NCBI GenBank assembly: GCA_043807585.1
Contig: JAZDFV010000015.1
Span: 16,071-80,070 of the forward strand
Source of the DNA: Candidatus Jorgensenbacteria bacterium
Lineage (GTDB): Bacteria > Patescibacteriota > Minisyncoccia > UBA6257 > GWB1-50-10
Direction: 5' to 3'
DNA length: 64,000 nucleotides
Shown: positions 342-53,226 of the stretch, in pieces
Position numbering within the stretch: the first letter of the stretch is position 1
How the letters are laid out: every line of letters starts with the position of its first letter
Position numbers and translations under genes: made by a program
The notes under the pieces: generated by a model
What the model saw: the letters and a program-made list of their open reading frames with translations, nothing else
Database searches by the model: none
Told to the model about the DNA's origin: nothing

Positions 342-710
342 CTAAAGCACATCGAGCGCCGACTTGAACAGTTTAATGGCGAACTCAAAGACCCACACGA
401 CAAGGTCAATAATGCCGCGGAGGAGGTGTGTGAGGTCAATGCCGAGGTGCTCCTGCATCCATGCTTTCACGGAATCCCAGATGCCGGAGGCGCCGCCGGC
501 GATCTGTCCCGGGGCAACCATCTCGCCGGTAAAGCCCGGGAAAATGCGCTGGATGTTGATGCCGAGCTTCTCCTGGATAAATCCCAAGGGGTCAGTGAGC
601 ACTTGTGGGATACTTTCTGCGGACGGGAGCTCCTGCGCTGCGGCGGGAACGGGAAAAACCGCAAGGGAAGCGGAAAGAATAAGCGCGATGGCGAGGAGCT
701 TCATTGGCAA
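342..710 (-). CDS. small secreted hypothetical protein (signal peptide MPMKLLAIALILSASLAVFPVPAAAQE)
   Basis: 122-aa ORF with typical N-terminal signal peptide; no recognisable domain. Confidence 0.4.
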   Translation of the reverse strand: MPMKLLAIALILSASLAVFPVPAAAQELPSAESIPQVLTDPLGFIQEKLGINIQRIFPGFTGEMVAPGQIAGGASGIWDSVKAWMQEHLGIDLTHLLRGIIDLVVWVFEFAIKLFKSALDVL

Positions 711-741
711 TATTATACCACTCCCCTCTTGAGATCGGAAG

Positions 742-9457: not shown

Positions 9458-10465
9458 CTACTGAGCCGTGAGATTTATCAGTTTCCCCGCGATGAATCCT
9501 TTTATATTTTCTACTGTGGTATTGAAGATGCGCTCCAGCGCCTCCTGGGTATTGAACGCGTTGTGCGGCGTGATGAGGACATTCGGCATTTTCATCAGCA
9601 TGTGGTTTTCCAGCATCGTGCGCAGTTCCTCCGCGTGTGCGTTAACGTTCCGGAAGAACTGCATCTCGTCCTTCGTCGGGCCTTCTTCTTCCAGCACGTC
9701 CACGCCAAGACCAGCCAGTGTTCCGTCCGCGAGCGCCGCAATCAAGGCATCGGTTTCCACGATGCCACCGCGCGCGGTGTTCACGAGGTACGCACCTTTC
9801 TTTATAAGCTTCATGTTATCGCGGTTCAAGAGGTGATGTGTTTCTTTGGTATAGGGCGTGTGGATAGAAATAATGTCGGAGGTCTTCAGAAGTTCTTCCA
9901 AGGGCAGGTACTGATAATTCATTTCTTTTGCATATGCCTCGTTGGGAAACGGGTCGTAAGCGACGACGTTCATTCCGAAACCTTTTGCGATCTTCACCAT
10001 TTCTTTCCCGATGCGGCCTGTGCCGATGATGCCGATGGTTTTCCATTTGAGGTCCATCCCGCGGAGGTCGTGGAGCGAGAACGATTCGAGTTCCTTCACC
10101 TGATCGATAGCGCGGTACATCTTGCGCGTGAGGTTCAGGATGAGGCCGAAGGCGAACTCCGCCACGGTATTGTCGCCATAGCCGGGCACGTAGGCCACCG
10201 CGATGCCGCGTTTTGTGCACTCCGCGAGGTCAATGTGGTCAAAACCGGTTGAGCGGGTCGTGATGAACTTGAGTTTCGGGAATTGGGCGAGGACCGCTGG
10301 CGTGAAGCGCGAGTTCACGAAGACGGAGATAACTTCCGCGCCGTTCATTTCGGGAAGCGTCAATTCGTCTATCTTGTTTTCATTGAACGATAATTCCGCA
10401 TCGGGAAACGCCGCCCGCGCGAGCGGTTCCTCCCACCCTTCCACCTCAAAAAAGGCAATGCGCAT
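9458..10465 (-). CDS. ldhA: D-isomer-specific 2-hydroxyacid dehydrogenase (D-lactate dehydrogenase-like)
   Basis: GIIGTGRIGKEMVKIAKGFGMNV NAD-binding motif and catalytic RGG/E/H arrangement of the D-2-HADH family; likely true start is MRIAFF (ATG at 10465) with TATAAT 7 nt upstream (leaderless). Confidence 0.8.
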   Translation of the reverse strand: MRIAFFEVEGWEEPLARAAFPDAELSFNENKIDELTLPEMNGAEVISVFVNSRFTPAVLAQFPKLKFITTRSTGFDHIDLAECTKRGIAVAYVPGYGDNTVAEFAFGLILNLTRKMYRAIDQVKELESFSLHDLRGMDLKWKTIGIIGTGRIGKEMVKIAKGFGMNVVAYDPFPNEAYAKEMNYQYLPLEELLKTSDIISIHTPYTKETHHLLNRDNMKLIKKGAYLVNTARGGIVETDALIAALADGTLAGLGVDVLEEEGPTKDEMQFFRNVNAHAEELRTMLENHMLMKMPNVLITPHNAFNTQEALERIFNTTVENIKGFIAGKLINLTAQ

Positions 10466-10496
10466 GTATCTATTATAGTACGTGTCGCCGCGAAAC

Positions 10497-10522
10497 AAAA
10501 ACCCCGCGCGGGGCGGGGCTTG
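10497..10522 (-). terminator. rho-independent terminator (ccccgcgcgggg stem then T-run on the minus strand) after the DUF559 gene
   Basis: aaaaaccccgcgcggggcggggctt read on the minus strand gives a GC hairpin followed by tttttgttt. Confidence 0.5.
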
Positions 10523-10558: not shown

Positions 10559-11317
10559 TTATTCGTGCGAATTAGCCGAGGGGAAGATAACGGCCCCGCC
10601 GCGGGAGCGAATCGCGCGCCGCACCGTCGCCATACAACTTTCAAAATCTGCTGTGAGTGCCTTCTCCGTAAGGCGCACCACTACCCATCCACGCTGCTGC
10701 AAGAAAAGATCTTTGGCACGGTCGCGCCTGCGTGTGTGCGCCCCGGCGTGCGCTTTCGTGTTATCGCATTCTACCGCAATGAATCCTCGCCGGCACGATA
10801 TCGCAAAATCAAGGCAGTACCGTTTCCCGCCGGAAATCCGGTATTGCGGAATCGCGGGGATGCCACACCGCGTGAGCGCCTGCGCCACTATCTCTTCTGT
10901 TGGCACCACTCGGTAGAGTTCGAGAATCGTTCTCGCAGTCAACAAACGGTCGAGCGTTGTAAAACCGAACGAAACACGCCTCGGCGGCACGTTCCTGATT
11001 GGCCGCGGGAGTTGTTGGATGCGGCCCACGTGAATTTGTTGATATTGCTTACCCGCGTCAGGATGGGTGGCCTCATCCGGAAGCAGGTCGCGCCGCGTCC
11101 GTACGCGCGAACGAACTGTGCGCGCATAGTAACGGATGCATCGCCCCAGTCGGCCGAAGAGCGCTGGTTGGTAGAACGCGAGATAGTGAAACGCGCGCCG
11201 CGGCGCCTTGGCGACCGGCATACGGTACCAATGCTCACGGAGGAGAATGGCCAAATCGCGCCTGCGCTTCAATATACCGACAAGCACCACCCCATCCTTC
11301 GTGTGTGCGCGCTCCAT
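10559..11317 (-). CDS. DUF559 (endonuclease-like, restriction-endonuclease fold) domain protein
   Basis: C-terminal YCLDFAI...IAVECDNTKAH...DRAKDLFLQQRGWVVVRL resembles the DUF559/Vsr-like fold. Confidence 0.55.
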   Translation of the reverse strand: MERAHTKDGVVLVGILKRRRDLAILLREHWYRMPVAKAPRRAFHYLAFYQPALFGRLGRCIRYYARTVRSRVRTRRDLLPDEATHPDAGKQYQQIHVGRIQQLPRPIRNVPPRRVSFGFTTLDRLLTARTILELYRVVPTEEIVAQALTRCGIPAIPQYRISGGKRYCLDFAISCRRGFIAVECDNTKAHAGAHTRRRDRAKDLFLQQRGWVVVRLTEKALTADFESCMATVRRAIRSRGGAVIFPSANSHE

Positions 11318-12076: not shown

Positions 12077-12355
12077 TTAAAGAATGGTAATGATGGCTCG
12101 GGCGGCAGGGCGTGCGGTATTCGCGAGCCGATAGAACACCTGCAAATCCCGCTGGTCGCGATCCACAAGGTCAGCCGCGTGGAGCACCGCGAGGTGCCGC
12201 GAGGTCGATTTGAAAGAGAGACGTATGGCACCCGCAATCTTCCCTACCGATGCCTCGCGCTCCTCCTTGAGATACTTCATGATGGCAAGCCGCCGCCGGT
12301 TGGCGAGTGCCTTGAGGGTCCGCTCGAGATCGCGCATAGGTGTTTGGGTTACCAT
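12077..12355 (-). CDS. ArsR/SmtB-family transcriptional regulator
   Basis: 92 aa; winged HTH VGKIAGAIRLSFKSTSRHLAVLHAADLV. Confidence 0.7.
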   Translation of the reverse strand: MVTQTPMRDLERTLKALANRRRLAIMKYLKEEREASVGKIAGAIRLSFKSTSRHLAVLHAADLVDRDQRDLQVFYRLANTARPAARAIITIL

Positions 12356-12383
12356 TATGCCTTATTTTACCATTCGCGCGAAA

Positions 12384-12416
12384 ACATTCCGACATTCTGC
12401 AGAATGTGAGAATGTT
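12384..12416. promoter_or_regulatory. imperfect copy of the 40-bp palindrome (cattctgcagaatgtgagaatg core) between the divergent ArsR genes, abutting the TATAAT of the plus-strand ArsR; candidate operator
   Basis: Palindrome ends 6 nt before tataat (12423-12428); ATG at 12438. Confidence 0.5.
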
Positions 12417-12437
12417 GTGTGGTATAATGAAACTGGT

Positions 12438-12713
12438 ATGAAAACAAAAACGGCAAAGCAACTGGAAAGGCATTTTAAGGGCATGGCCAACCATCGGCGG
12501 ATCGAGATTTTGAGATTGATTGCCGAGAGTGAGGGAATTAGCTTGGAAAACATTGCCAGGAGTCTGGATTGTAATTTCAAGACCATTTCCGAGCATACTA
12601 AAAAATTGGTTCAAGCTGGGCTGGTTGATAAAAAATATCACGGCAGGACAGTCGCTCATACCCTCTCACCCTACGGCAAAATTTTCTGCAAATTTATAAC
12701 CAGCTTCTCGTAA
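12438..12713 (+). CDS. ArsR/SmtB-family transcriptional regulator
   Basis: MKTKTAKQLERHFKGMANHRRIEILRLIAESEGISLENIARSLDCNFKTISEHTKKLVQAGLV; start chosen at internal ATG preceded by tataat. Confidence 0.7.
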   Translation: MKTKTAKQLERHFKGMANHRRIEILRLIAESEGISLENIARSLDCNFKTISEHTKKLVQAGLVDKKYHGRTVAHTLSPYGKIFCKFITSFS

Positions 12714-12742: not shown

Positions 12743-12776
12743 GACATTCTCACATTCTGCAGAATGTGAGAATGTC
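12743..12776. repeat. copy of the 40-bp perfect palindrome family (gacattctcacattctgcagaatgtgagaatgtc) between the convergent ArsR and helicase genes
   Basis: Read directly; identical core at 15125, 16239. Confidence 0.7.
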
Positions 12777-12851: not shown

Positions 12852-14429
12852 TCATGCTTCTCGGAGCTTCCGGTCGAGCTTTAGTTTTGCGATGCGCGAA
12901 CGGATGGCGCTCTGTTGACGCCCCAATCGCCCCGCGAGGTTCTTCACGGGCGCGCCGCTCGAAAAAAGTTCTCTCAGTTCTGCATCATCGCTCGTCGGCC
13001 ATGGGCGGTACGCGTTCGGATACCGCTCCCGCATCTCGGCGAACCTGGTATCGCCCGACACTCCGCCGCCGCGTGACCGGGCGAATTCTGCTCGGTGTTC
13101 CGCTCGCCTCTTCATGGTTCCTCCGCACGTAACGATGAATTTCCTTTCCCGTGCGTTTTGGGAAACGGGGGTCTGTAGGGTAAGTTCTGCCGCGGCGCGG
13201 TGAGATAGTTGCTGGAACTCTCCATCACGCGCGAGAATCTCGGGATGCACTTCAAGCGCACGTTCGTTCCACCCGAGAAGGGAAAGCCCGGAAAAAGACC
13301 TCACGCGGGAGAGCGCGACATACCCCTGCCCGTACTCGAACGCGCGAGAGAGATCGACCACCGCGGCGTCGAGCGTCATCCCCTGGCTCTTATGGACGGT
13401 AATGGCCCACGCGAGCTTCAGCGGCACCTGCCGGATGCGCGCGAGCGTTTTCGCGCCGTCCACCATGGACCACTCCATGGGGAGTGCATGAATGAGACGC
13501 CCGGCGTGCGTGCGCACGAGCGGGTAGCCCTCATCGGAAAAATCTTCCACCTCTCCCAGCGTGCCGTTCACAAACCCCTCCTCAAAGTTGTTCTTAGTGA
13601 AGAGCACCTTCGCGCCCAGTTTGAGGAAAAGTCGCTCCGGTGAGAGACAGCCGCGCTTCAATTGCGCTACGAGCGTTTTTGCACCGTGCGATTCCATGGA
13701 GCATTCGCGGACGCTCCCCGGCAATAACGCCAAACGCTCTTCGTTCATTTTATCTACATCAACATTATGTGCGTAGAGATGTGTGTGATTTCCTTCTCGG
13801 ACGGTGTGGACACGCCGCGCGCGAAGCACGGCGGACATTCGCGTTCCACTCCCGCGGCGCACCTCCGAAAGGAGCGCGAGAAACTCCTTTTCATCCTGAC
13901 GGTACTGCTCGGAAAGATAGCACACCGCCACCTCGGCTGTTTCCCAGGACGGCGAGAGAAACGCGAATCGCGCCGGCGGTTCACCTTCCCGTGCAACCGG
14001 GGGTAATTGGAAGAAATCCCCAGCGAGCACCACCTGCAGACCGCCGAACGGCGCTTTATTTTTCCGGAGCACGCGGCACACCACATCAACAGAGGCAAAT
14101 GTTTCGGCATCCAGCATTGAAATCTCATCAATGATGAGCACTTTCGTACGCGCCACCCGCGACGTAAGTCGGTCGTTCCCCGCGAGCAGTTCCGCCTCAT
14201 CTCGGGAGAGCGATTTCCGGATACCGATGCCGGACCACGCATGGATGGTCATACCGCCTATATGCGTCGCCGCGATGCCGGTGGACGCGGTGATCGCCGG
14301 TTCGATACCGTGCGCGCGGAGATAGGCGACGTAGCGGTTCACGGTGTGTGTTTTTCCCGAGCCGGGCTCACCCGTCAAAAACACGTTCACGCCGGACTTC
14401 AACACCATGAGCGCTTGCTCCTGGGTCAT
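12852..14429 (-). CDS. PIF1/RecD-like (AAA_30) ATP-dependent DNA helicase
   Basis: Walker A LTGEPGSGKTH, Walker B VLIIDEISM, helicase motifs plus C-terminal HTH-like tail. Confidence 0.75.
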   Translation of the reverse strand: MTQEQALMVLKSGVNVFLTGEPGSGKTHTVNRYVAYLRAHGIEPAITASTGIAATHIGGMTIHAWSGIGIRKSLSRDEAELLAGNDRLTSRVARTKVLIIDEISMLDAETFASVDVVCRVLRKNKAPFGGLQVVLAGDFFQLPPVAREGEPPARFAFLSPSWETAEVAVCYLSEQYRQDEKEFLALLSEVRRGSGTRMSAVLRARRVHTVREGNHTHLYAHNVDVDKMNEERLALLPGSVRECSMESHGAKTLVAQLKRGCLSPERLFLKLGAKVLFTKNNFEEGFVNGTLGEVEDFSDEGYPLVRTHAGRLIHALPMEWSMVDGAKTLARIRQVPLKLAWAITVHKSQGMTLDAAVVDLSRAFEYGQGYVALSRVRSFSGLSLLGWNERALEVHPEILARDGEFQQLSHRAAAELTLQTPVSQNARERKFIVTCGGTMKRRAEHRAEFARSRGGGVSGDTRFAEMRERYPNAYRPWPTSDDAELRELFSSGAPVKNLAGRLGRQQSAIRSRIAKLKLDRKLREA

Positions 14430-14899
14430 GCGGGTAAATCGTCGTTGATGTGGGTCACCCGCAGCCGCTCAATGCCGTTGGTTTCAAATTCTTTCCAGTA
14501 TTTTTCGAACAGAGGATGGTCTTTCTCGATCCGCTCGGACGCGCTCATCGCCCGAATTTCCTCGTCGGTGTACATTCTGGAACAATCACGGTCCACGAGA
14601 TGGCACGCCAACTCCTCCCAGAAATTTTCCTCGTCGTAGCGATCAATACATTCCTGTATCTCCTCATCGTCCTCGAGTTTCAACGTAGGAACGTGCCGCC
14701 GCATCTCAACGTCGTACTTTACCAAGTCCCCCGCCCCAAACTCCTCGGCGCGGGAGAACATGTAATCCTCGATCTCGTCGAATGCCTCCTTCCGCTTGTC
14801 GTCGGGCGCGTCCGTACGCACCGCGTTCGCAAGCCAGTTGCCCAAGTATACCGTCTTGAGCAGGGCGAGAAACTGGTCTTTAGTAAGTCGAATCTCCAT
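14426..14899 (-). CDS. acidic hypothetical protein translationally coupled (ATGA overlap) to the PIF1-like helicase
   Basis: 157-aa ORF ending 4 nt inside the helicase start. Confidence 0.5.
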   Translation of the reverse strand: MEIRLTKDQFLALLKTVYLGNWLANAVRTDAPDDKRKEAFDEIEDYMFSRAEEFGAGDLVKYDVEMRRHVPTLKLEDDEEIQECIDRYDEENFWEELACHLVDRDCSRMYTDEEIRAMSASERIEKDHPLFEKYWKEFETNGIERLRVTHINDDLPA

Positions 14900-15124
14900 A
14901 CGCTTCGAAAATGGTAATAACTTCTCAACTATTCTATCACTTGCGCAATCCAGACAATAGCGTAGACAACTATTCTACCATTCGAGCTTTGCTAAGTAGC
15001 GCCTTCCCGTCCGCCCGCTCCGCGCGCCGTCGTCAAAGCCTCTGGCGACGTACGACCGGAGCAGTAGCGAGGCAAGTAGCTGGGCGAAAAGGCGGAAATT
15101 AGAGATATAACGAGAAAAGGTATG

Positions 15125-15164
15125 AACGACATTCTCACATTCTGCAGAATGTGAGAATGTCGTT
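15125..15164. repeat. 40-bp perfect palindrome aacgacattctcacattctgcagaatgtgagaatgtcgtt
   Basis: Exact reverse-complement symmetry about ctgcag. Confidence 0.75.
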
Positions 15165-15181
15165 TTGGTGATGCGGGTCTG

Positions 15182-15403
15182 TCAGTCGGACATTTTCCAC
15201 TGGACGCGGCCGACGGTGCCGTCCGTTAGGCGCACCTTGATGCCGCGCGGGTGGATGCCCTTGGACGTCAAAATCTCCTTCACTATCCCCTGCGTGTAGT
15301 TCGTCGTACCGTAGTTTTCTTTCTCTATGATCCAGACGGCGTCCCCGGGTTTCACTTCGCTCCGCTTCGGCGGATTGGGATTGTCGGGTCCGTGCTTTCT
15401 CAT
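15182..15403 (-). CDS. YwbE-family (DUF2196) small protein
   Basis: GIVKEILTSKGIHPRGIKVRLTDGTVGRVQ matches the YwbE signature. Confidence 0.7.
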   Translation of the reverse strand: MRKHGPDNPNPPKRSEVKPGDAVWIIEKENYGTTNYTQGIVKEILTSKGIHPRGIKVRLTDGTVGRVQWKMSD

Positions 15404-15441
15404 GTTCGTTTTGTCATTCTACCTCAAAACGCCGCGCGCGG

Positions 15442-15471
15442 CAGGGTGCTACAGTCAACTGTAGCACCCTG
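15442..15471. repeat. palindrome cagggtgctacagtcaactgtagcaccctg (GGTGCTA-N10-TAGCACC family) upstream of the ywbE-like gene
   Basis: Read directly. Confidence 0.55.
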
Positions 15472-15503
15472 GTGATGATGGGAGAATTGAGGAAGAAACC
15501 CGT

Positions 15504-15827
15504 CTACCGCGGCAAATTGTCAAAAATCGTAACATCGCCCCCACTGTACTCCCCTACTTCAAACCCATCATATGCAAAGTGATTGCCATTCTGATTGAAA
15601 TAGAGCGCGGTGTGTCGGTCGAGGATGATCATAAAGCCGCGGCTGCCTGGTTGATACGGAACGATATCGACACGCTCCACGCCGGAAAAAATATCATGGA
15701 GCGGACCAAAAGGAGAATTCTTGATTCCTTGTTGGCGCGCCAAAAATGTTATGGCCGCACGTGGCCATAACTTTAAAAGTAGTCTTGTATACCAGCTGAT
15801 TTTTATCTCCTTCCTCGTGTTCGCCAT
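15504..15827 (-). CDS. hypothetical protein
   Basis: 107-aa ORF, no recognised domain. Confidence 0.35.
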   Translation of the reverse strand: MANTRKEIKISWYTRLLLKLWPRAAITFLARQQGIKNSPFGPLHDIFSGVERVDIVPYQPGSRGFMIILDRHTALYFNQNGNHFAYDGFEVGEYSGGDVTIFDNLPR

Positions 15828-15837
15828 ATTCCTAGTA

Positions 15838-16134
15838 TCATTCGCTCGCGGGTGACTTGAGAGAATCGCGTTTTGCTTCTTCCACGTTTTCCTTTAGGGA
15901 GCCAACCTTACGCATGATATCGATCAAGGTTTTTGTTTCTTCCTGGTCTGCATCCGGTGACATTGCCCGGCGCGCTGCCTCTAAATTTTCCGCCAGGCGG
16001 GACATGCTCTCGGCCATCTTTTTGAAGAGCAACTCCTTCGGGATATTTTTCTCTCCGCCGTATTTCACAATCCACCACCAATATAGGAGCCGAACCTTCA
16101 CCATTGGCCAGAAGCTGTAGCGTATAAAATCCAT
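15838..16134 (-). CDS. hypothetical small protein
   Basis: 98-aa ORF. Confidence 0.35.
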   Translation of the reverse strand: MDFIRYSFWPMVKVRLLYWWWIVKYGGEKNIPKELLFKKMAESMSRLAENLEAARRAMSPDADQEETKTLIDIMRKVGSLKENVEEAKRDSLKSPASE

Positions 16135-16164
16135 ATCTCTATTCTATCTCAAAACGCCATGCGG

Positions 16165-16204
16165 GGTACTATAGGCTAATTCGCACGAATTAGCCTATAG
16201 TACC
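16165..16204. repeat. 40-bp palindrome ggtactataggctaattcgcacgaattagcctatagtacc (GGTACTA...TAGTACC outer arms, long spacer)
   Basis: Read directly; followed by a ccattcgcgcgaattagagaatgg module also present at 12367 and 12025. Confidence 0.55.
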
Positions 16205-16238
16205 ATTCGCGCGAATTAGAGAATGGGACTCAAGCAAG

Positions 16239-16274
16239 AACATTCTCACATTCTGCAGAATGTGAGAATGTCGT
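16239..16274. repeat. copy of the 40-bp palindrome family
   Basis: aacattctcacattctgcagaatgtgagaatgtcgtt. Confidence 0.7.
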
Positions 16275-16362
16275 TCTCTATGATCCAGACGGCATCCCTG
16301 GGTTTCACTTCGCTCCGCTTCGGCGGATTAGGATTGTCGGGTCCTTGCTTCCCCATATTCGT
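16264..16362 (-). pseudogene. internally deleted remnant of a duplicated ywbE-like gene (5-prime about 90 nt only)
   Basis: 16275-16362 is near-identical to 15308-15403 (the ywbE 5-prime end); a deletion junction joins it directly to the palindrome. Confidence 0.6.
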
Positions 16363-16399
16363 TTTGTCATTTTAACATTTTCGCCTTACTTCTCGTTGG

Positions 16400-17155
16400 T
16401 CAGTTAGTTTTTTTGTACCAAACATCAATTTTTTGACGTGTTTCTCTTCGATTTGCATTAACAAAAGTCTGTAATTGTGGAAAATATCCTAAAAATTCGT
16501 CGTGTAATTTCTTGCGGCTAGCTGATGTCTCTCTACCACTTTTAATTAAATAACTAGTCCGAACTAACCCAATAATAAGATCGACGAGTTGCAGTTCACA
16601 TGATGCATATAAAGGCGCAAAGAGTACTGAAGAATCTCGAATCTGGATTGTGGGCTTCCCCAAAATAGTATTCTTTTTTCTCAGCATATTATTCAGTACC
16701 TTCGAGAATTCTTCCTGTTGCTCAAAATTAAGCGATTGTCTATCAAAGATAAGTCGAGCAGCAGAAAGACGATTGTGTATTAAGCTTCCATGAAGTATCC
16801 ATGGATAAGACAATAGCAGTGCCGCTAACTTCGCGCGGCTGATGTGATTTTCCCATCTTTCCCACGTGCGAGCGTTCACCACAATTGCTCTAAACAGGGC
16901 ATTCGAATCAACAAAAGCAGAAAGAAACCCACTCATAACTTTAGATTGTTTTTCGGTAATATTTGTAGTGTTGGAAAAATGAAGAGTATTGATACAACTT
17001 TCTTTCATTCTCACTTGCCCAAGTCGCTGGAACAAATCGCAATCTACAGGTAGAAAAATACCACCAACCATAAAATGGCTGGTGCCTAGATACCCGAACT
17101 CAGTTTCGTCCAAAAAAATCCTGCAAAGATGAAATACTGATTCTGAAATTTTCAT
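16400..17155 (-). CDS. DUF3800-like protein (defence-island-associated family), AT-rich
   Basis: N-terminal IFLDETEFGY resembles the DUF3800 IFIDESG start; 251 aa; low GC. Confidence 0.4.
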   Translation of the reverse strand: MKISESVFHLCRIFLDETEFGYLGTSHFMVGGIFLPVDCDLFQRLGQVRMKESCINTLHFSNTTNITEKQSKVMSGFLSAFVDSNALFRAIVVNARTWERWENHISRAKLAALLLSYPWILHGSLIHNRLSAARLIFDRQSLNFEQQEEFSKVLNNMLRKKNTILGKPTIQIRDSSVLFAPLYASCELQLVDLIIGLVRTSYLIKSGRETSASRKKLHDEFLGYFPQLQTFVNANRRETRQKIDVWYKKTN

Positions 17156-17223
17156 TACGAAACAAGCCGGGTTGCCCCGGCTTGGAAGTCAAACGGCTTT
17201 CGAGTCAGGGCGCAATTGGTTCT

Positions 17224-18798
17224 TTATATTCCAAGTTCTTTGTCTCTATTTTTTTCTTCTACCGGCTTCGCTTCCTTGTAGTACCGCAGGGCGCCGAGGG
17301 GCACCCTCGGCTTCTTGTTGTTCAGCAAATCGTCAACGGTGAGGATTTGAATCTTGGGGAATTCAAACTCGTTTCCGAACTTGACCTTGTACGAACCGGC
17401 GCTCGCCGCTTCCTCCAGCATCGGCTTGGTTGGTTTCTCAAGCGTAATGAGCACGCCACCCTCCGCTCGTTCCCGCTCCACGTCACCCTTGAGCGTGGCG
17501 ATATCGTTCCGATGAACCCCGCCGCCTTTCACCTGCACCAGCAAGCGGCCGTATTCCTCGTTCCCATTCTTCAAGTCCTTTACGAACGTAATAACCCCGT
17601 CTATGCCTTTATCGGCGCCGCGCATATGCTCCTTCGTTTTACTTTGAGCCGGCACCGCGTCCACCATATCGAGCACCCAGTATTCGAATTCAAACGGGTC
17701 TTTTTTGAATAGTGCCTGCGCGCTGGCAACATCACGCGGACGACCGTCAATATATATTGCAGGCATCTTTCCTTCAAACTGCTTAGCGAGGCGATGGCGA
17801 ATGAGGTTGATCGCAAGCATCGTGATGTCAATACCGACCCAGTTCCGCTTCAGGCGTTCCGCCACCGACACCGTTGTCCCGCATCCGCAAAATGGGTCAA
17901 GCACCCAATCCATTTCGTTTGAAGATGCCTTAACAATACGTTCAAGGAGTGTTTCTGGTTTTTGAGTGGGATAGCCAAGTCGTTCATTAGGAGAAATATG
18001 CCCTCCTGATGGAATATCAACCCAAAAATCTTCTGGAATCTTACCTCGCTTTAAATATTCCTGACGCACTGTTTCATCCTGTAATTTCCCTTCACTCCCC
18101 CATATTTTTGCCCCAGCACCCTTATCTGTATGTAACTCCTTATAGGGAATCCTCGTTGCTTCAAGATTGCTGTAATAATTATCTGTCTTTGAATATCGCA
18201 AAATTGTGTCATGTTTTTTAGGAAAATCATTCTTTGCACCAGAAGGACCAGTATAGCACCACACAATCTCGTTCCTAAAATTCTGCTTTCCAAAAATCGC
18301 GTCCATCACAATTTTTAAGTAATGGCTTGCGGTCGGGTCACAGTGGAGATAAATACTCCCTGTCGGTTTCAGCACGCGATGTAACTCTAAGAGTCGCACC
18401 GTCATCATGGTGAGATAGGCAAGCACGTCGTTGTGTCCCACGAGTTTCTCCAACGCCTGCATCAGATTGATGATTTTCTCGTTGATGGGCGCTTTTGTAG
18501 TTCGTACTCCCGCGAGTTCCTCGAAGGTTTCCTGCGCATCGCGCGTCCAGTGCCATGAATCTTCAAACGCCTGCACTTGCGAAGGGCTGTCCTGCAACCC
18601 TTCTTTAAAGAGAACATTGTAGTTCCGGTTGGAGTTGAACGGCGGGTCGAGATAAATCAAATCAAAACTCTCGTCGGGAATTTTCTCCCGCAGGATTTCC
18701 AAATTATCGCCGAAGAACAGGGTGCGATTTCTAAGTGGTTCCATTTTTTTCCATCCTACTCCTCTTTTTCTTCCCCGCCAAGCTACGAGAGGGTACAC
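17224..18798 (-). CDS. beta-class N6-adenine/N4-cytosine DNA methyltransferase fused to a C-terminal Mrr-like (PD-(D/E)xK) nuclease domain
   Basis: Motif IV DLIYLDPPFNS precedes motif I LDPFCGCGTT (beta order); C-terminus GADKGIDGVITF...LLVQVKGGG resembles Mrr_cat. Confidence 0.75.
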   Translation of the reverse strand: MYPLVAWRGRKRGVGWKKMEPLRNRTLFFGDNLEILREKIPDESFDLIYLDPPFNSNRNYNVLFKEGLQDSPSQVQAFEDSWHWTRDAQETFEELAGVRTTKAPINEKIINLMQALEKLVGHNDVLAYLTMMTVRLLELHRVLKPTGSIYLHCDPTASHYLKIVMDAIFGKQNFRNEIVWCYTGPSGAKNDFPKKHDTILRYSKTDNYYSNLEATRIPYKELHTDKGAGAKIWGSEGKLQDETVRQEYLKRGKIPEDFWVDIPSGGHISPNERLGYPTQKPETLLERIVKASSNEMDWVLDPFCGCGTTVSVAERLKRNWVGIDITMLAINLIRHRLAKQFEGKMPAIYIDGRPRDVASAQALFKKDPFEFEYWVLDMVDAVPAQSKTKEHMRGADKGIDGVITFVKDLKNGNEEYGRLLVQVKGGGVHRNDIATLKGDVERERAEGGVLITLEKPTKPMLEEAASAGSYKVKFGNEFEFPKIQILTVDDLLNNKKPRVPLGALRYYKEAKPVEEKNRDKELGI

Positions 18799-18844
18799 CT
18801 ACCCCAAAACCGAACCCCGGTAATAGCGGTTAGTAGAGACAAAC

Positions 18845-18897
18845 AAAAACGCCCGCTTGGGCGGGTTTGGATTATCGGGTCCGAATTTACGCATATT
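18845..18897 (-). pseudogene. second short remnant of the ywbE-like 5-prime end
   Basis: gcccgcttgggcgggtttggattatcgggtccgaatttacgcatattcgttttgtcatttta parallels 15345-15420. Confidence 0.45.
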
Positions 18898-19002
18898 CGT
18901 TTTGTCATTTTACACCAAAATGACGACTATTAACCTGTTATTAGAAGCATTGACATAGAGAGTACGTGGCGTTAATATACCGTCGGTTACTTTTGAGAGT
19001 GC

Positions 19003-19221
19003 ATGTGGCCTAGGCCTAAGACGACACTTCGCTTGCGAGGTTCAAACGTCATGGCACATACGAAAGGACTGGGAAAGGAGTACATTTACTGCCAATCGAT
19101 CGACTCACCTCCAGAATGGCAGGACGAAGTAGACTACCTCATTTATGAAGTTCAAAGTCTATTGATAGTAGAGAGGTTCAGCCAAAGATCGGTCGAGACA
19201 GATTTTGTACCTTCTCCCTAA
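19003..19221 (+). CDS. small hypothetical ORF ending at a rho-independent terminator
   Basis: 72-aa ORF; terminator immediately follows. Confidence 0.3.
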   Translation: MWPRPKTTLRLRGSNVMAHTKGLGKEYIYCQSIDSPPEWQDEVDYLIYEVQSLLIVERFSQRSVETDFVPSP

Positions 19222-19250
19222 GCCCAACAAGGATATCCTTGTTGGGCTTT
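19221..19250 (+). terminator. rho-independent terminator agcccaacaaggatatccttgttgggc then ttt
   Basis: 11-bp perfect stem, T-run on the plus strand. Confidence 0.55.
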
Positions 19251-19362
19251 AAATTTTTATGTGGATAACTACGCACAGGTATCCCTTACCAACAAAAAGT
19301 GGTTTTCTTCCCTGCTCGGTGCTTTACTGTCTTCTGCAAGGTAGAGAGGAAGCGGGATTTGG

Positions 19363-19719
19363 TCATTTATTAAAAGCCCATTCAGAAATATTGAGCAGAA
19401 CAATAGCATCCTCCTGTTGATTGGTCCAAATAGGTACTGTTTTATTCCAGTAGAAGAAGTGTGAAGTATTGCCACTCCCATTTACTTGTGTTTTATAAGA
19501 CCCTTTCTTTGTATAAAGAACAATTAAATCACCCTTTTTAATTTCGTGGTCAGTAAACCAAAAAGTAGCACTGGTAGCACTAGAAACTTGCGCCTCCCCT
19601 GTTTTTTTAGATTTGAAAACGGCGTATTCTCCAACGTTATCATCATCCAAAACCTCAAAAATAACCCTTTCTTTCTCTAAATTCCCCGCGTCTTCAATTC
19701 CTTTAATTTGGATTTTCAT
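19363..19719 (-). CDS. hypothetical soluble protein, AT-rich, first gene of a two-gene module
   Basis: 118 aa; stop/start overlap with the upstream gene. Confidence 0.45.
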   Translation of the reverse strand: MKIQIKGIEDAGNLEKERVIFEVLDDDNVGEYAVFKSKKTGEAQVSSATSATFWFTDHEIKKGDLIVLYTKKGSYKTQVNGSGNTSHFFYWNKTVPIWTNQQEDAIVLLNISEWAFNK

Positions 19720-20267
19720 TATGAATTATTTTTCTTAAAAGATTTCAAAAAATCAGGGTTCCACATAGCCAAAACAAAACTCGCTAAACATAAAAGTGCT
19801 ATACCCCAACGATATTGCAATAAATCAGGAGTAAAGAAAAGACCTCCCAATAAACCACCAACGGTGAATAAAAGATTCCTTACTCCAATAGATTCTCCTA
19901 ATCCTAATAATCTCTCCTTCAAAACAGCGGATTCTTCACTCTTTTGATAAAATTTATCCTTAAATGGTTTTAATCCAGCAATTTCACTTTGATAACGCTT
20001 AGTATCACCAAGAAGTGTTCTAGCTACCACTTTTGCTACTTTATTGTTTTCTAAATCTTCTTCGGTAATTTCATCTTTAATGCCAGCGTAGGGCGTTTTT
20101 GCTGACTTAACGCCATCTATTTCTGGCGAACCCTTCGGCTCCTCATCTAGTTTTAGAACTATCTTAGCCATTTTGTCTAAGTATAACACACCTGGTTCAA
20201 TGGTATCTACCAAAGAGTAATCCCGATATTTATAATGAGACAAGGATAGCTTTTCTCTAGAAACCAC
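19719..20267 (-). CDS. hypothetical protein with C-terminal transmembrane helices, AT-rich
   Basis: 182 aa; hydrophobic C-terminus NLLFTVGGLLGGLFF...IALLCLASFVLAMW. Confidence 0.45.
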   Translation of the reverse strand: MVSREKLSLSHYKYRDYSLVDTIEPGVLYLDKMAKIVLKLDEEPKGSPEIDGVKSAKTPYAGIKDEITEEDLENNKVAKVVARTLLGDTKRYQSEIAGLKPFKDKFYQKSEESAVLKERLLGLGESIGVRNLLFTVGGLLGGLFFTPDLLQYRWGIALLCLASFVLAMWNPDFLKSFKKNNS

Positions 20268-20329: not shown

Positions 20330-22921
20330 CTACTTCTTCGCCAACTGAAGAATGGTTTTGATGACCGTATCCGGATTGAGAGAGATGCTCTCTATCCCCT
20401 TCCTGATGAGGAACGCGGCGAAGTCGGGGTAGTCCGAGGGTGCCTGGCCGCAGATGCCGCTGTATTTTTTTCGCTTGCGGCACTTCGCGATGACCTCCGC
20501 GATCATCTTCTTCACCGCCGGGTTGTTCTCGTTCGCGATGTGGGTGACGATTCCGGAATCGCGGTCGAGGCCCAGGACGAGCTGGGCTAGGTCGTTGGAC
20601 CCGATGGACATACCGTCAAAAATGTCCAGGAACTCATCGGCGAGGAGAATGTTGGAGGGGATTTCGCACATCACATAAACCCGCAACGGGTTTATGTGAC
20701 CCTGAGCCTGTCGAAGGGTTGTTTTCCCTCGCTTCAAACCGAAGCGCGCCATTGCGGCGAGTACCTTTCTTCCCTCCTCCGGCGTGCGGCAGAATGGCAC
20801 CATCGGCACCACGTTCGTGAGGCCGAACTTCTCGCGGACGCGCCGCAGGGCTTTCACCTCCAGGCCGAACGCTTTCTCGAACTTCGGGTCGTAGTAGCGC
20901 GAGGCGCCGCGCCACCCGAGCATGGGGTTCTCCTCCACCGGTTCGTAGAGTTCACCACCCACGAGCTTCCGGTACTCGTTCGTCTTGAAATCGGAGAAGC
21001 GGATGATAACCTCGCGCGGGTAGAACGCCGCGCCTATCTTTGCAATGCCCTCGGCGAGTTCGTCCACGTAGAATTTTGTCTTATCCTTATAGCCCGGCGT
21101 CAGTTCGTCAATTTTCCGAATCAGTTTCTGCAGTTTTGATTTTTCAGTTTTCGTTTTGACTTTTGAGATTTGAGATTTGAGTTTATCGTATTCGATGAGC
21201 GCGTTCGGGTGAACCTTGATGTGCGAGGCGATGATGAACTCCAACCGCCCAAGGCCCACGCCCGCGACGGGCAGGTAGTGGTTTTTGAACGCCTCGTCGG
21301 GCGCGCCGATATTGACCATAATCTTTACCTTCGGCTTCGGGAGCTTGTCCAGGTGGTGCTCTTTTATTTCAAACGCCAGTTTCCCCTGGTACACATGGCC
21401 GGTTTCGCCGCCCGAGCAGTCCACAGTAACCGCCTGCCCCGTTTTCAGCTTCCGCGTGGCGTTTCCCGCGCCCACGATGCAGGGAATCCCGAGCTCGCGC
21501 GAGACGATGGCGGCGTGCGACGTGCGCCCACCCTTGTCTGTCACGATCGCCGCGGCGATCTTCATGATAGGCTCCCAATCGGGGTCGGTGATCTCGGTCA
21601 CGAGCACCTCGCCGGGCTTGAACGAACCAATACCCCTTATGCTCTTTATCACCCGCGCCTTTCCCGCGCCCACTCTCTCCCCCACCGCGATGCCCTCCGT
21701 AAGCACCTTGCCCTGAGGGCTTCGACTGAGCTCAGCCGAATGTCCTTGTCGAAGGGTTTTGCCCCCTGCGCGCCGAAGTGTTTTATCTTTGAGCCGGTAC
21801 TCGCGGTAAACCTTCTTACTTTCCATTGCGTGGACCGTTTCGGGGCGCGCCTGCACGATGAAGAGTTCGCCTGTTTTGCCGTCCTTCGCCCACTCGATAT
21901 CCATCCCGTTAGAGGCAGCCCGCCCCAGGGCCCCTCCGGGGCGCGCAGCGCGGGCGCGGCCTCTAACGGGACCCATCGGCCGCATACGATTCCTCACTTC
22001 TGCAAAGTGTCTCTCTATCTCGACACTCCACCGCGCGAGCGTGAGCACCTCATCCTCCGTGAGGCAGAAGCGGTTCTGGTCACGCGGCGAGACCGCCACC
22101 TTCCGCGTTCCTACGCCCGCGTAGACGAGCTTCACCGTTTTCCTCCCAAGGTTCTGGGCAATGACCGCCTTGAACCCCTGCGCCAGGGTCGGTTTGAAGA
22201 CCACGAACTCATCCGGCAGCACCCTTCCCTGCACCACCATCTCACCCAGACCCCATGAGGCATTTACCACCACCACCTTGTCGAACCCCGTTTCGGTATC
22301 AATGGTGAAGATGACGCCGGAGGCGGAGAGATCGGAGCGCACCATCTTCTGGACACCCACCGAGAGCGCCACATCCGAGTGCGTGAACCCTTGGTCCGCA
22401 CGGTACGAGATGGCGCGGTCCTTGAAAAGCGAGGCGATGCATTTCTTCGTGGCGAGGAGCACTTCATCGGCGCCGGAAACGTTCAGGAACGTTTCGTGCT
22501 GGCCGGCAAATGAAACACCGGGGAGATCCTCCGCGGTCGCCGAAGAGCGCACCGCCGTGTCCAAGTTCTTCCCGTACTTCTTCTCCAGTTTCCGATACGC
22601 CGCCCGTATCTCGCGTTTCAGGTCTGCGGGGAGTTCCGCCTTCACTATGAGTTCGCGTATCGCCTTACCGCGCCGCTGGAGGTCCTTGAGGTTGCGGGTT
22701 TTGAGGCCAGCGAGGAGCGTTTTTATTTCGCGGTCCAGCCCGGTTTCTTTCAGAAAGTAGCGGTAGGCGCCCGCGGTGATGGCGAAGCCGTCAGGCACAC
22801 TGATACCCCGCTTCGTGAGGTTCGAGTACATTTCCCCGATCCCGGCGGTCTTGCCGCCTACCTTAGGGACGTCCTTCAAACGTATGTCTTTGAACCAGAT
22901 GATGAACGGCTTATAGGTCAT
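20330..22921 (-). CDS. ppsA: phosphoenolpyruvate synthase (pyruvate, water dikinase) carrying several in-frame repeat-element insertions
   Basis: MTYKPFIIWF...VGGKTAGIGEM N-terminus, central phospho-His domain, C-terminal MCEIPSN...GSNDLAQ PEP-utilising block; 863 aa against about 790 typical. Confidence 0.85.
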   Translation of the reverse strand: MTYKPFIIWFKDIRLKDVPKVGGKTAGIGEMYSNLTKRGISVPDGFAITAGAYRYFLKETGLDREIKTLLAGLKTRNLKDLQRRGKAIRELIVKAELPADLKREIRAAYRKLEKKYGKNLDTAVRSSATAEDLPGVSFAGQHETFLNVSGADEVLLATKKCIASLFKDRAISYRADQGFTHSDVALSVGVQKMVRSDLSASGVIFTIDTETGFDKVVVVNASWGLGEMVVQGRVLPDEFVVFKPTLAQGFKAVIAQNLGRKTVKLVYAGVGTRKVAVSPRDQNRFCLTEDEVLTLARWSVEIERHFAEVRNRMRPMGPVRGRARAARPGGALGRAASNGMDIEWAKDGKTGELFIVQARPETVHAMESKKVYREYRLKDKTLRRAGGKTLRQGHSAELSRSPQGKVLTEGIAVGERVGAGKARVIKSIRGIGSFKPGEVLVTEITDPDWEPIMKIAAAIVTDKGGRTSHAAIVSRELGIPCIVGAGNATRKLKTGQAVTVDCSGGETGHVYQGKLAFEIKEHHLDKLPKPKVKIMVNIGAPDEAFKNHYLPVAGVGLGRLEFIIASHIKVHPNALIEYDKLKSQISKVKTKTEKSKLQKLIRKIDELTPGYKDKTKFYVDELAEGIAKIGAAFYPREVIIRFSDFKTNEYRKLVGGELYEPVEENPMLGWRGASRYYDPKFEKAFGLEVKALRRVREKFGLTNVVPMVPFCRTPEEGRKVLAAMARFGLKRGKTTLRQAQGHINPLRVYVMCEIPSNILLADEFLDIFDGMSIGSNDLAQLVLGLDRDSGIVTHIANENNPAVKKMIAEVIAKCRKRKKYSGICGQAPSDYPDFAAFLIRKGIESISLNPDTVIKTILQLAKK
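20672..20735. mobile_element. hairpin (cacataaacccgcaacgggtttatgtg) plus cctgagcctgtcgaaggg element inserted in-frame in ppsA (encodes KTTLRQAQGHINP)
   Basis: Same cctgagcctgtcgaagg module with an adjacent hairpin at 47986-48030 (in ychF). Confidence 0.55.
21131..21183. repeat. gagatttg-type tandem repeat inside ppsA (encodes SQISKVKTKTEKSKLQKL); related copy intergenic at 50710-50750
   Basis: ttttgacttttgagatttgagatttgag. Confidence 0.5.
21707..21765. mobile_element. short CTGAGC-family element (ggcttcgactgagctcagccgaatgtccttgtcgaaggg) in-frame in ppsA
   Basis: Same termini as the longer copies at 55617, 60158 and 50010 (reverse orientation). Confidence 0.6.
21901..21976. mobile_element. 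cccgttagag TIR element (short form) inserted in-frame in ppsA (encodes MRPMGPVRGRARAARPGGALGRAASNG)
   Basis: catcccgttagaggc ... gcctctaacgggac inverted termini as in the copies at 44842, 45946, 48936. Confidence 0.6.
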
Positions 22922-23252: not shown

Positions 23253-24581
23253 TTAATCTTTCAGCGCAACAATCAAATCCGAAACGTTGGAGCCGGTGTC
23301 GCCCGTGATGAGGGCGTCGCCCGTCGCTTTGAAAAACTCGTAGGAGTCGTTCTCGGCGAGGAACTGTGCGGCGTCAAGTTTCAACTTCTCCGAGTGCTCC
23401 TTCGTCATTATATCAGAGACGGCGCCGGCGAAGTCGGTGTTGTCCCGTCCGTCGGAAGCGAGGGCGAGAACGAGCTCCCCTTCTTTGAGCTCCCTCAAGG
23501 CACCGAGGGCGAGCTCAAGGTTCCGGCCGCCTCTCCCCTGCGGGTTCTGCACCGTGACAGTGGTCTCTCCGCCGTAGAGGTGGACGGTGCCGGGTGCCGC
23601 CTCATGGAGCACATCCGCGATTTCTCTGCCCACATCCCGCGCCTCGCCGCGAAGGTTCGCGGTCATGATGCGGGGCGTGAAACCGGATTTTTCCGCCTCC
23701 GCCGCCATCGCCCCGAGCGCGGCTTGGTTGGAAACGACAAGGAGGTTCGTCACTTTTTCAAAATACTTATCCTCTTTTGGCGTCTCAATGAGTTCCAGTC
23801 GCGGGAGGTTACACTTCTCGCGGATGGCGTACTTCTCGAGCACCGCTTCGGCGTCCGCCACCGTCGTTTTGTCCCTCACAGTGGGGCCCGACGCGATGAA
23901 AGCAAGTTCGCCGCCCGGGACGTCGGAGAAAATGAGCGAAATTACCTGTGCGGGGCAGGCATAGCGCGCGAGCCAGCCGCCGCGGGCAAGCGAGGTGTGC
24001 TTGCGGAGTGTGTTTATCTCGTAGATGTCGGCGCCGCCCGCAAAGAGGCAGCGGAGGATTTTGGCTTCATCTTCGCAGGTGTGGTCCTGCGGCTGACCCG
24101 CCTCCGCTGAAGCTATGGCGGGTAAACATAATAAAGTAGAGCCGCCCCCCGAGACGACAAAGAGCACCGTATCTTTCTCCGAGAGGCCGGTGAGCGTTTG
24201 AATAATCTCCTTCGTGGCGTCCACGTTGGACTGTGTGGGGAAGGGGTGGGTACCAAAGCGAATTTCTAATTTCAAATTCCTAATTTCTAATGACGGCTTG
24301 TTTGACGTTAGAATTATTCCACCAGACAATCTTTCGCCGAGAATTTTTTCCAGTACCCTACCCGATTCCAGCGCGCACTTCCCAACCCCAATGACGAGGA
24401 GTTTGCCGTCCGGTGCAAGCTTGAATTTCTCCCCCTTTACGGAGAGTGTGTCACCCGCGAACTGTACTGCGTTCTTCACGACCGATTCGGTGTCTATCGC
24501 CTGAAGTCCGGCCTCCGCGATCTGGAGCGCCGCTTCCCGCGGTCTGCTCTTCGCAAGTTGCCCGAAGTTTTTGATTCTCAT
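23253..24581 (-). CDS. glycerate kinase (MOFRL/DUF4147 family, glycerate 2-kinase type)
   Basis: 442 aa; conserved blocks LVIGVGKCA, FSDVPGGELAFIASGPT, LYGGETTVTV typical of the GckA/TtuD family. Confidence 0.7.
   Translation of the reverse strand: MRIKNFGQLAKSRPREAALQIAEAGLQAIDTESVVKNAVQFAGDTLSVKGEKFKLAPDGKLLVIGVGKCALESGRVLEKILGERLSGGIILTSNKPSLEIRNLKLEIRFGTHPFPTQSNVDATKEIIQTLTGLSEKDTVLFVVSGGGSTLLCLPAIASAEAGQPQDHTCEDEAKILRCLFAGGADIYEINTLRKHTSLARGGWLARYACPAQVISLIFSDVPGGELAFIASGPTVRDKTTVADAEAVLEKYAIREKCNLPRLELIETPKEDKYFEKVTNLLVVSNQAALGAMAAEAEKSGFTPRIMTANLRGEARDVGREIADVLHEAAPGTVHLYGGETTVTVQNPQGRGGRNLELALGALRELKEGELVLALASDGRDNTDFAGAVSDIMTKEHSEKLKLDAAQFLAENDSYEFFKATGDALITGDTGSNVSDLIVALKD
24261..24293. 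repeat. taatttctaat tandem units inside the glycerate kinase CDS (encode EIRNLKLEIRF)
   Basis: aatttctaatttcaaattcctaatttctaatga; same unit dominates the murG-ftsW spacer. Confidence 0.5.
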
Positions 24582-36754: not shown

Positions 36755-36899
36755 TTTTTAATTTTACCCCTTCGATAAACTCAGGACAAGCAAAAAACCG
36801 TCTGTTTGGCGATTTTTATTGGCTTGCCCTGAGCTTGTTGAAGGGCTCCGCTGGATGGATGATGCCTGCCCTGAGCAAAGTCGAAGGGTTAGGGCCTGT

Positions 36900-38147: not shown

Positions 38148-38183
38148 AATTCAGATTCGAAAGAAAAATTTCCCCTTTATGGA

Positions 38184-53224: not shown

Positions 53225-53226
53225 AT

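Follow-up and report, generated by a model that had tools for sequence, protein, structure and literature searches.

Among the systems described so far, those closest in build to the locus treated here are abortive-infection or toxin-antitoxin modules of two genes in which one product is a small membrane effector; examples are the membrane effectors of CBASS (cyclic-oligonucleotide-based antiphage signalling system) and Pycsar (pyrimidine cyclase system for antiphage resistance), together with the RexAB-type pairs of a sensor and a membrane protein. We analysed a stretch of 64,000 nucleotides (nt) of DNA, hereafter the window (contig JAZDFV010000015.1, positions 16,071 to 80,070), from a metagenome-assembled genome (MAG) of Candidatus Jorgensenbacteria, a member of the candidate phyla radiation (CPR). 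In this window, the gene for a small soluble protein with a predicted fold like that of the lamin tail domain (LTD) directly follows the gene for a short membrane protein, and the two form a real, conserved, self-contained and horizontally mobile two-gene module. An initial annotation, made from the sequence alone, had placed this pair in a candidate defence island together with a PIF1-like helicase coupled to a 157-amino-acid (aa) protein, three ywbE copies, a DUF3800-like gene and a methyltransferase-Mrr fusion. The whole region is a composite and not one system, and as an island it is nothing unusual, a patch of genes of the mobile-element kind; known families account for the helicase, YwbE, DUF3800 and methyltransferase proteins. 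The LTD/membrane pair belongs to none of the families searched and resembles, by analogy, small sensor-plus-membrane-effector or toxin-antitoxin modules.

The gene pair and its predicted proteins

The genes of the candidate island all lie on the minus strand, and the two genes of the pair are arranged as follows.

19363-19719, minus strand: 118-aa cytoplasmic LTD-like beta-sandwich protein, downstream gene of the pair
19719-20171, minus strand: 150-aa membrane partner, which could extend to a GTG at 20267 to give 182 aa

In NCBI the two products, encoded on a 101-kb contig, are V1696_03810 and V1696_03815 (100% identity). The genes overlap by one base (TAATG), and hydropathy analysis of the partner's open reading frame (ORF) reveals two hydrophobic segments at the C-terminus. 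The initial annotation had described a soluble 118-aa protein overlapping a 182-aa membrane-anchored one, and the one-base overlap, the C-terminal membrane segments and the AT-richness all stand, but the upstream product is probably 150 aa long. This is the length annotated in the source MAG, with an ATG start at 20171, and the shorter start fits both the N-termini of the homologues and a promoter-like site at 20209-20180.

The 118-aa protein, modelled from an alignment of 11 sequences, is predicted to be an eight-stranded beta-sandwich with a mean predicted local distance difference test score (pLDDT) of 95.7, and 13 of the top 16 Foldseek ranks for this model are Ig-folds of lamins A/C and B1. 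As modelled, the protein has an LTD-type Ig-like beta-sandwich fold; it carries neither a signal peptide nor a transmembrane (TM) segment. A Pfam search at E<=0.01 gave no match, LTD (PF00932) included, profile searches against PDB sequences with the LTD family and with its partner returned noise and no lamin, and a fold search of the viral structures in BFVD yielded nothing significant. Because its sequence similarity to lamins is not significant, the protein is called lamin-tail-like by fold only, and the fold is its sole likeness to the lamin tail domain (PF00932). It differs from that domain in standing alone without a signal peptide, being neither the tail of a filament protein nor a domain of a secreted nuclease, and its family carries an invariant SHFFYW motif of its own, besides invariant ER residues.

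The membrane partner begins with a variable acidic N-terminus. Next comes a conserved helix with the consensus RxLSxEELxSPxVxKxLL, then a coiled coil of the pattern FxxxFxxxDxxxAVLEE, and then a pair of hydrophobic helices joined by a short PxxW loop; the protein ends in a basic tail. By the positive-inside rule, both ends of the hairpin (N-in/C-in) and the coiled coil would lie in the cytoplasm. Neither protein of the pair matches Pfam, NCBIfam, PHROGs or PADLOC-DB v2.0.0 (PADLOC at E<=0.01), in agreement with the earlier impression that the module is not a named system, and in the open-access literature we found neither lamin-tail domains in phage-defence or conflict contexts nor a pair of this type.

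Distribution and linkage of the pair

By motif scan, 11 of 185,579 species genomes contain a relative of the 118-aa protein, as do 174 metagenome stretches (80 of which were retrieved) and 13 IMG/VR contigs; these counts are lower bounds, since the scans used a single motif. The carrier genomes span at least eight phyla and belong to Paceibacterota, Fibrobacter, Bacteroidota (Algoriphagus, Chryseobacterium), Ignavibacteria, Alphaproteobacteria (Sphingomonadales, Ensifer), Acidobacteriota and Planctomycetota (Planctomycetales). Linkage was assessed on the 72 non-redundant loci whose upstream sequence extends for 400 nt or more. An adjacent upstream ORF on the same strand with C-terminal TM segments is present in 60 of them, across many phyla and phages, which answers the question of neighbourhood conservation raised by the initial annotation in favour of the pair, and one further locus (L097) has a frameshifted copy of the partner. 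Starting from the partner in the window, jackhmmer converged on all 60 of these partners, in a small database and at lenient E-values. Sequence distances of partner and LTD protein are correlated across loci (r 0.52; 0 of 2000 Mantel permutations reach this value), as expected of genes that move as a unit.

The base composition of the pair differs from that of its surroundings. The GC content of the pair lies below that of its flanks in 20 of the 21 long loci, by 8.3 percentage points on average, in hosts whose GC ranges from 0.31 to 0.71, and in the window the pair has a GC of 0.35-0.36 against 0.54 for the window as a whole, which bears out the horizontally acquired AT-rich context noted earlier. 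With two small, co-directional, overlapping genes that are conserved as a unit and mobile, the pair has the layout of type II-like toxin-antitoxin or abortive-infection modules. As a separate observation, the soil-metagenome contig L097 holds two LTD genes in opposite orientation within 3 kb (439-828, plus strand; 3439-3825, minus strand), and it is the partner of the first copy that appears frameshifted.

Genomic contexts

The contexts of the pair range from phage genomes to bacterial chromosomes. In an IMG/VR phage, a cassette of a helix-turn-helix (HTH) regulator, the partner and the LTD gene lies between the portal and the scaffold/capsid genes, beside an HNH endonuclease; the interval between portal and capsid genes is a classic position for accessory genes ('morons'). 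In five prophage-like IMG/VR contigs (L029-L033, e.g., L030 7401-8360), an LTD gene without the TM partner directly follows a gene for an Rz-like i-spanin. In Chryseobacterium populi (L018 5771-8019), the LTD gene follows a gene for an OLD-family ATPase-TOPRIM protein that replaces the two-TM partner, and this unit is situated between a gene for an SbcC-like ATPase and the Wadjet genes JetA/B/C. The OLD and LTD genes recur together, in other surroundings, on a metagenome contig (L108 6205-8366) whose OLD protein is 94% and whose LTD protein is 83% identical to that of C. populi; at such identities the two occurrences represent one lineage in two contexts, and the idea of an independent second architecture was rejected.

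At other loci, a NACHT-type STAND NTPase or a superfamily 1 (SF1) helicase-DUF559 nuclease is adjacent. The 147 neighbours of 30 representative loci include PADLOC matches to MADS, RmrA, LmuB, Jet, methyltransferases and PDC candidates, as well as integrases, transposases, Bro-N proteins and ordinary metabolic genes, and no conserved third gene was found among them. In one Paceibacterota genome, the pair stands alone between greA/lysS and mraZ/mraW.

A possible function of the pair and its alternatives

We tentatively read the pair as an abortive-infection or exclusion defence module, and favour this reading over a plain toxin-antitoxin system, a function in the service of the phage and a structural role. 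In the mechanism envisaged, the LTD-like beta-sandwich protein would bind the coiled-coil cytoplasmic part of its partner and hold the membrane protein inert, and a trigger, for example a phage protein, would titrate or alter the beta-sandwich protein. The freed membrane protein would then assemble into oligomers by way of its coiled coil and make the membrane permeable or depolarise it, so that the growth of the infected cell would halt by abortive infection or exclusion, and phage-borne copies would give lysogens the same protection. The anatomy from which we infer this is that of a short membrane protein able to oligomerise via its coiled coil, combined with a small soluble protein of a binding fold in a presumably fixed ratio. 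The genomic contexts agree with an abortive-infection or exclusion module and also with a membrane toxin and its antitoxin. Established for the pair are its predicted fold and topology, the conservation of the gene pair, the homology of the partners, the low GC, the patchy spread across phyla and phages and the lack of a match in four family libraries; beyond these lie a presumed physical interaction of the two proteins, toxicity of the membrane protein, a trigger and any anti-phage effect. More doubtful is the broader proposal that the pair represents a previously unrecognised anti-phage family, common to CPR, other phyla and phages, in which the LTD fold would serve as an interchangeable sensor or adaptor for different effectors, two-TM membrane proteins at most loci and an OLD-family nuclease in Chryseobacterium.

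Several observations weigh against a defence function. The membrane-protein-first order and the small size of the genes fit a plain toxin-antitoxin system equally well, and many loci have plainly housekeeping neighbours. Searches by tblastn of 50,697 GenBank phage records and 72,556 PLSDB plasmids gave no LTD homologue, and the family is therefore rare in cultured mobile elements. In seven of the 72 loci no ORF lies directly upstream, and in four the gene at that position is another one, without TM segments, from which it follows that the LTD protein can act without this partner. The designation as LTD itself rests on predicted structure; support from the sequence is weak, with an hhalign probability of 7% for a match between the 118-aa family and the human lamin A tail.

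Of the competing explanations, a plain toxin-antitoxin or addiction module, with a two-TM toxin and an LTD-like antitoxin that stabilise the mobile DNA carrying them and have no dedicated anti-phage role, is unlikely, though less so than the others. Two small overlapping genes with a low-GC, patchy and mobile spread, self-contained in the sense that no third gene accompanies them and present inside a phage genome with an HTH regulator of their own, are readily accommodated by it; the absence of homologues from plasmids, where addiction modules are common, is not, and an LTD gene that at some loci stands behind an OLD nuclease or spanin gene, with no TM partner, would be odd for a dedicated antitoxin. 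The phage genome and the spanin genes are likewise the basis for supposing that the pair serves the phage, through superinfection exclusion, lysis timing in the manner of a holin/antiholin or another membrane process, and that the bacterial copies are prophage remnants: 13 loci come from IMG/VR, a bona fide phage carries the pair between its portal and capsid genes, and in five prophage-like contigs a gene for an Rz-like i-spanin immediately precedes the LTD gene. Most bacterial loci have no phage genes nearby, however, an endolysin is not consistently adjacent, the pair is absent from the GenBank phages and the spanin-adjacent copies lack the TM partner, which makes this explanation improbable. 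Holin or lysis function as a general explanation was rejected, since most loci are without lysis genes.

A structural or envelope housekeeping module has its attraction in the combination of a coiled coil and an LTD, which is the architecture of lamins, here split over two genes as a membrane-anchored coiled coil and a lamin-tail-like adaptor, and some loci do lie among cell-division or housekeeping genes, such as the one adjoining mraZ/mraW. Extreme patchiness (11 of 185,579 species genomes match the motif), a GC consistently below that of the flanks and carriage by phages do not suit a core cellular function, and such a scaffold is very improbable. We give equally little credence to the view taken in the initial annotation that the helicase and its 157-aa partner form a new defence system and that the methyltransferase-Mrr protein is a single-polypeptide restriction-modification (R-M) or modification-dependent enzyme. 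The ATGA coupling of helicase and partner, a 46%-identical homologue of the partner in a type I R-M locus, family members beside an HTH-Panacea antitoxin-type gene or fused to MazF, and the GIDG...VQVK residues kept by the Mrr-like domain speak for it. On the other side, the partner belongs to a family of 1,825 clusters whose members stand alone among housekeeping genes in Omnitrophota and other genomes, a helicase is adjacent in a 90%-identical relative only, the operon has a host-like GC and the PADLOC helicase-domain matches are partial; the fusion is solitary in 28 phage records and in plasmids, and its C-terminus scores as well on an 'inactive REase' model as on Mrr_cat. The defence reading of the LTD/membrane pair remains the one we prefer, and the evidence on the neighbouring genes is given below.

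The surrounding region

The ORFs listed in the initial annotation are all present on the minus strand at their coordinates, and its domain calls for PIF1, YwbE, DUF3800 and the beta-class methyltransferase-Mrr protein hold. Around them lie the following genes.

9458-10498: 2-hydroxyacid dehydrogenase, housekeeping flank
10559-11317, minus strand: protein with a REase_MTES_1575/DUF559 (Vsr-like) nuclease domain (profile match 7e-14)
12077-12355, minus strand, and 12210-12713, plus strand: two ORFs for ArsR/MarR-type winged-helix regulators
20330-22921, minus strand: phosphoenolpyruvate (PEP) synthase/pyruvate phosphate dikinase-type gene (ppsA), GC 0.59, far boundary of the low-GC stretch
23253-24581: glycerate-kinase-like gene, housekeeping flank

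Compared with the GC of the window (0.54) and of the flanking genes (about 0.59-0.60), the PIF1 helicase (0.60) and its 157-aa partner (0.54) are host-like, and the DUF3800 gene (0.38), the methyltransferase fusion (0.49), the 118-aa gene (0.36) and its membrane partner (0.35) look foreign. The interval from 15.4 to 20.3 kb, between ywbE and ppsA, has a GC of 0.35-0.49 and is best explained as horizontally acquired low-GC DNA assembled from small cassettes, and the interval from 12.85 to 14.9 kb is an operon of host composition, with nothing that links it to defence. The notion of a defence island accordingly survives in part: some of the region is foreign and carries conflict-associated domains (DUF3800, methyltransferase-Mrr, and the DUF559 nuclease nearby), but the helicase operon does not belong to it. 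Likewise, of the two upstream genes described earlier, the DUF559-type nuclease at 10559-11317 is confirmed, but the 230-aa 'Zn-finger' ORF has no family match in Pfam, NCBIfam or PHROGs.

Some features elsewhere in the window are recorded here. The PEP synthase is long (863 aa), with Arg/Gly/Ala-rich insertions, e.g., MRPMGPVRGRARAARPGGALGRAASNG, between its conserved domains. A low-GC stretch at 53000-56000 (0.37-0.41) begins directly after a tRNA-Gln gene (53227-53298), the sole tRNA gene of the window and the sole Rfam match at the gathering threshold in it; tRNA genes are typical insertion sites for genomic islands. No match among PDB sequences was found for the ORF at 53545-54411. A second low-GC stretch at 36000-40000 (0.41-0.47) contains ORFs at 36900-37580 and 38184-39794, and its 536-aa product is likewise without a match among PDB sequences.

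The PIF1 helicase and the 157-aa protein family

The host-like part of the region consists of two genes.

12852-14429, minus strand: PIF1-family SF1B helicase (PF05970, 3.5e-35)
14426-14899, minus strand: 157-aa acidic helical protein, ATGA overlap with the helicase gene

The description of this operon as a PIF1-like helicase translationally coupled (ATGA) to an acidic 157-aa protein is correct. The helicase scores 122 bits against PF05970 (cutoff 25.9) and 2.9e-62 against phrog_325, and it matches human PIF1 structures at 3.6e-74 (253 bits to 6hpt/5fhh) as well as the yeast and bacterial PIF1 proteins in the PDB. Its translation contains the Walker A motif GEPGSGKT, the match to the 2B domain is borderline (23.6 vs. 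23.9), and PADLOC returned partial helicase-domain matches only. The full helicase core is shared with human, yeast and Bacteroides/Thermus Pif1, from which the protein in the window differs by a C-terminal extension of about 100 aa, HTH-like at residues ~465-522 (phrog_323 at 465-519), and by the coupled 157-aa protein.

The 157-aa protein (pI 4.5; 41 acidic and 22 basic residues) is no orphan and belongs to a large unannotated family. In an exhaustive HMMER search, 1,825 representatives of clusters formed at 50% identity passed E<=0.001, and 1,053 passed E<=1e-10; by comparison, a word-indexed search, with 2 homologues only, was misleading. Members are mostly stand-alone proteins of about 150 aa, and fusions to MazF/PemK, TPR repeats, the SEC-C motif and winged-helix domains also occur. 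One of the two word-indexed relatives, 90% identical, likewise adjoins a PIF1 helicase, and the other, 46% identical, heads a cluster of type I R-M genes in which hsdS and hsdR are accompanied by genes for a WYL-domain protein and a YgjP-like protein. In other genomes, members follow an HTH-Panacea antitoxin-type gene, lie between amidase and M42 peptidase genes in Omnitrophota (an arrangement kept across many samples), follow V-type ATPase genes or lie near a DUF6909 gene. The pairing with a PIF1 helicase is thus seen in the 90%-identical relative only, the five other sampled contexts being without a helicase.

Searches for an annotation of this family were negative: 77 members gave scattered noise only against Pfam, the family profile had no match in the PDB, NCBIfam and PHROGs gave none either, the 157-aa protein had none in PADLOC-DB v2.0.0 at E<=0.01, and a single pattern scan of IMG/VR found no relatives. 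The AlphaFold2 model of the protein is poor (pLDDT 56.5). The links to R-M, Panacea and MazF genes are no more than hints of a conflict-related role for some members. The operon had been proposed as an undescribed defence system, for which co-occurrence outside this genome was named as the test; with a lineage-specific pairing, a host-like GC and a family of 1,825 clusters, this proposal is not supported by its own test, and in the contexts sampled the helicase and its partner do not co-occur across diverged genomes as a conserved system would. On these negative results, neither the helicase operon nor the methyltransferase fusion counts any longer as a new system; at the same time they bring to light a family, of 1,800 clusters or more, whose ~150-aa proteins are without annotation in any library searched.

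The DUF3800 gene and the methyltransferase-Mrr fusion

Two genes of the foreign stretch carry domains of known families.

16400-17155, minus strand: DUF3800 (RNase H-like) protein (PF12686, 22.5 bits vs. cutoff 21, marginal; phrog_3732, 2.3e-6)
17224-18798, minus strand: beta-class N6/N4 methyltransferase with a C-terminal Mrr-like PD-(D/E)xK domain (PF01555, 5.9e-48, 164 bits)

DUF3800 is an RNase H-like domain with DE and QxxD motifs, known as an associated or fused module of type VII retrons (PMC7736814). The protein in the window has both, as DE at residues 16-17 and QLVD at 189, and together with a profile score marginally above the gathering cutoff this upholds the earlier DUF3800-like call. 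No reverse transcriptase lies near the gene, and an E-value search of 12-20.5 kb with Rfam gave no DUF3800 RNA motif, only spurious matches of palindromes to a microRNA model.

In the 524-aa methyltransferase fusion, the DPPF motif (residue 51) precedes FCGCG (residue 303), i.e., motif IV lies ahead of motif I, and the order is therefore that of the beta class. The C-terminus (residues ~367-491) matches Mrr_cat at 5.8e-9 (36.5 bits vs. cutoff 21) and, with a higher score, the 'inactive REase' model NA-iREase1 at 4.3e-10 (40 bits). It retains GIDG...VQVK, plausibly a D...QxK catalytic motif to judge from its residues. Full-length relatives align with it over 90-98% of its length at 38-47% identity; their genes are solitary and occur in phages of Marinitoga and Streptomyces as well as on plasmids of rhizobia and actinobacteria. 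In 28 phage records the match covers at least 80% of the query, and all full-length relatives are annotated as methyltransferase only. The fusion is consequently a known, uncharacterised mobile-element architecture, identical to that of the solitary beta-class methyltransferases with an Mrr-like C-terminus of phages and plasmids (phrog_67), from which the copy in the window differs in lying in a CPR chromosome, adjoining the DUF3800 gene and being bracketed by ywbE fragments. The architecture described in the initial annotation is present, but its reading as a single-polypeptide R-M enzyme is weakened by the solitary relatives and their methyltransferase-only annotation, and from the sequence comparison an orphan or anti-restriction methyltransferase appears at least as likely.

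ywbE copies, palindromes and the build of the foreign stretch

The foreign stretch is punctuated by repeats of the 5' end of ywbE.

15182-15403, minus strand: intact ywbE (DUF2196/TIGR03833; PF09962, 2.7e-22)
15504-15827, minus strand: 107-aa ORF
15838-16134, minus strand: 98-aa ORF with a hydrophobic N-terminus and a coiled coil
16271-16387, minus strand: second ywbE 5' copy with leader (91% over 104 nt), next to a 32-nt palindrome; separates the two small ORFs from the DUF3800 cassette
18853-18925, minus strand: third ywbE 5' copy with leader (79% over 73 nt, the most diverged), left boundary of the DUF3800 + methyltransferase cassette
12744-12775: 32-nt palindrome ACATTCTCACATTCTGCAGAATGTGAGAATGT, perfect copy

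The intact gene scores 77.7 bits against TIGR03833 (cutoff 63.4) and 78.9 against PF09962 (cutoff 25). The repeat comprises the first ~85 nt of ywbE and its upstream leader, and the copy within the intact gene spans 15318-15434. Two extra copies are real, as had been noted, but they are merely fragments of 73-117 nt from the 5' end and leader, not whole decaying duplicates. The three copies enclose two segments, 15435-16270 with the two small ORFs, which belong to no family in Pfam, NCBIfam or PHROGs, and 16388-18852 with the DUF3800 and methyltransferase genes, a cassette that is most likely derived from a mobile element. This pattern suggests serial insertion or recombination at one site, the 5' end of ywbE; no integrase is present in the foreign stretch, and the mechanism of insertion is for that reason inferred only.

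Further copies of the palindrome lie at 12384-12415 (2 mismatches), 15129-15160 and 16240-16271, which makes four within 4 kb, where 0 would be expected by chance, and none elsewhere in the window. Three of them are directly 3' of genes (helicase/ArsR, ywbE and truncated ywbE) and are for this reason probably terminators or operators; the fourth lies between the two ArsR-type ORFs, and the palindrome may serve as a terminator or operator or may be a small mobile repeat. On the opposite strand, a 72-aa ORF (19003-19221, plus strand) is located between the 118-aa gene and the third ywbE fragment, and at its end stands a GC-rich hairpin of 13 bp that has a T-run (19220-19249); no Pfam match was found for it, and it may be a gene remnant.

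Comparison with known systems

If the proposed function of the LTD/membrane pair is correct, it would be the first cytoplasmic role to be defined for a lamin-tail-like domain in bacteria, and thereby provide a functional handle on such domains, and it would place the pair among the few defence candidates in CPR/Patescibacteria, whose immunity is poorly understood. Whether a defence or an addiction module, the system would be compact, with about 270 residues in all, and its sensor fold would be unusual. Its likeness to CBASS, Pycsar and RexAB-type modules lies in the small operon, in which a short multi-TM protein is the likely effector and a soluble protein the likely sensor or regulator, and in the mobile, patchy, low-GC occurrence in phages as well as in bacteria. 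It differs from them in having no PADLOC match and no nucleotide-signalling enzyme, in the lamin-tail-like beta-sandwich predicted for its soluble component, and in the organisation of its membrane protein, which consists of a cytoplasmic coiled coil followed by a C-terminal hairpin, instead of a ligand-binding domain joined to an N-terminal bundle of TM helices.

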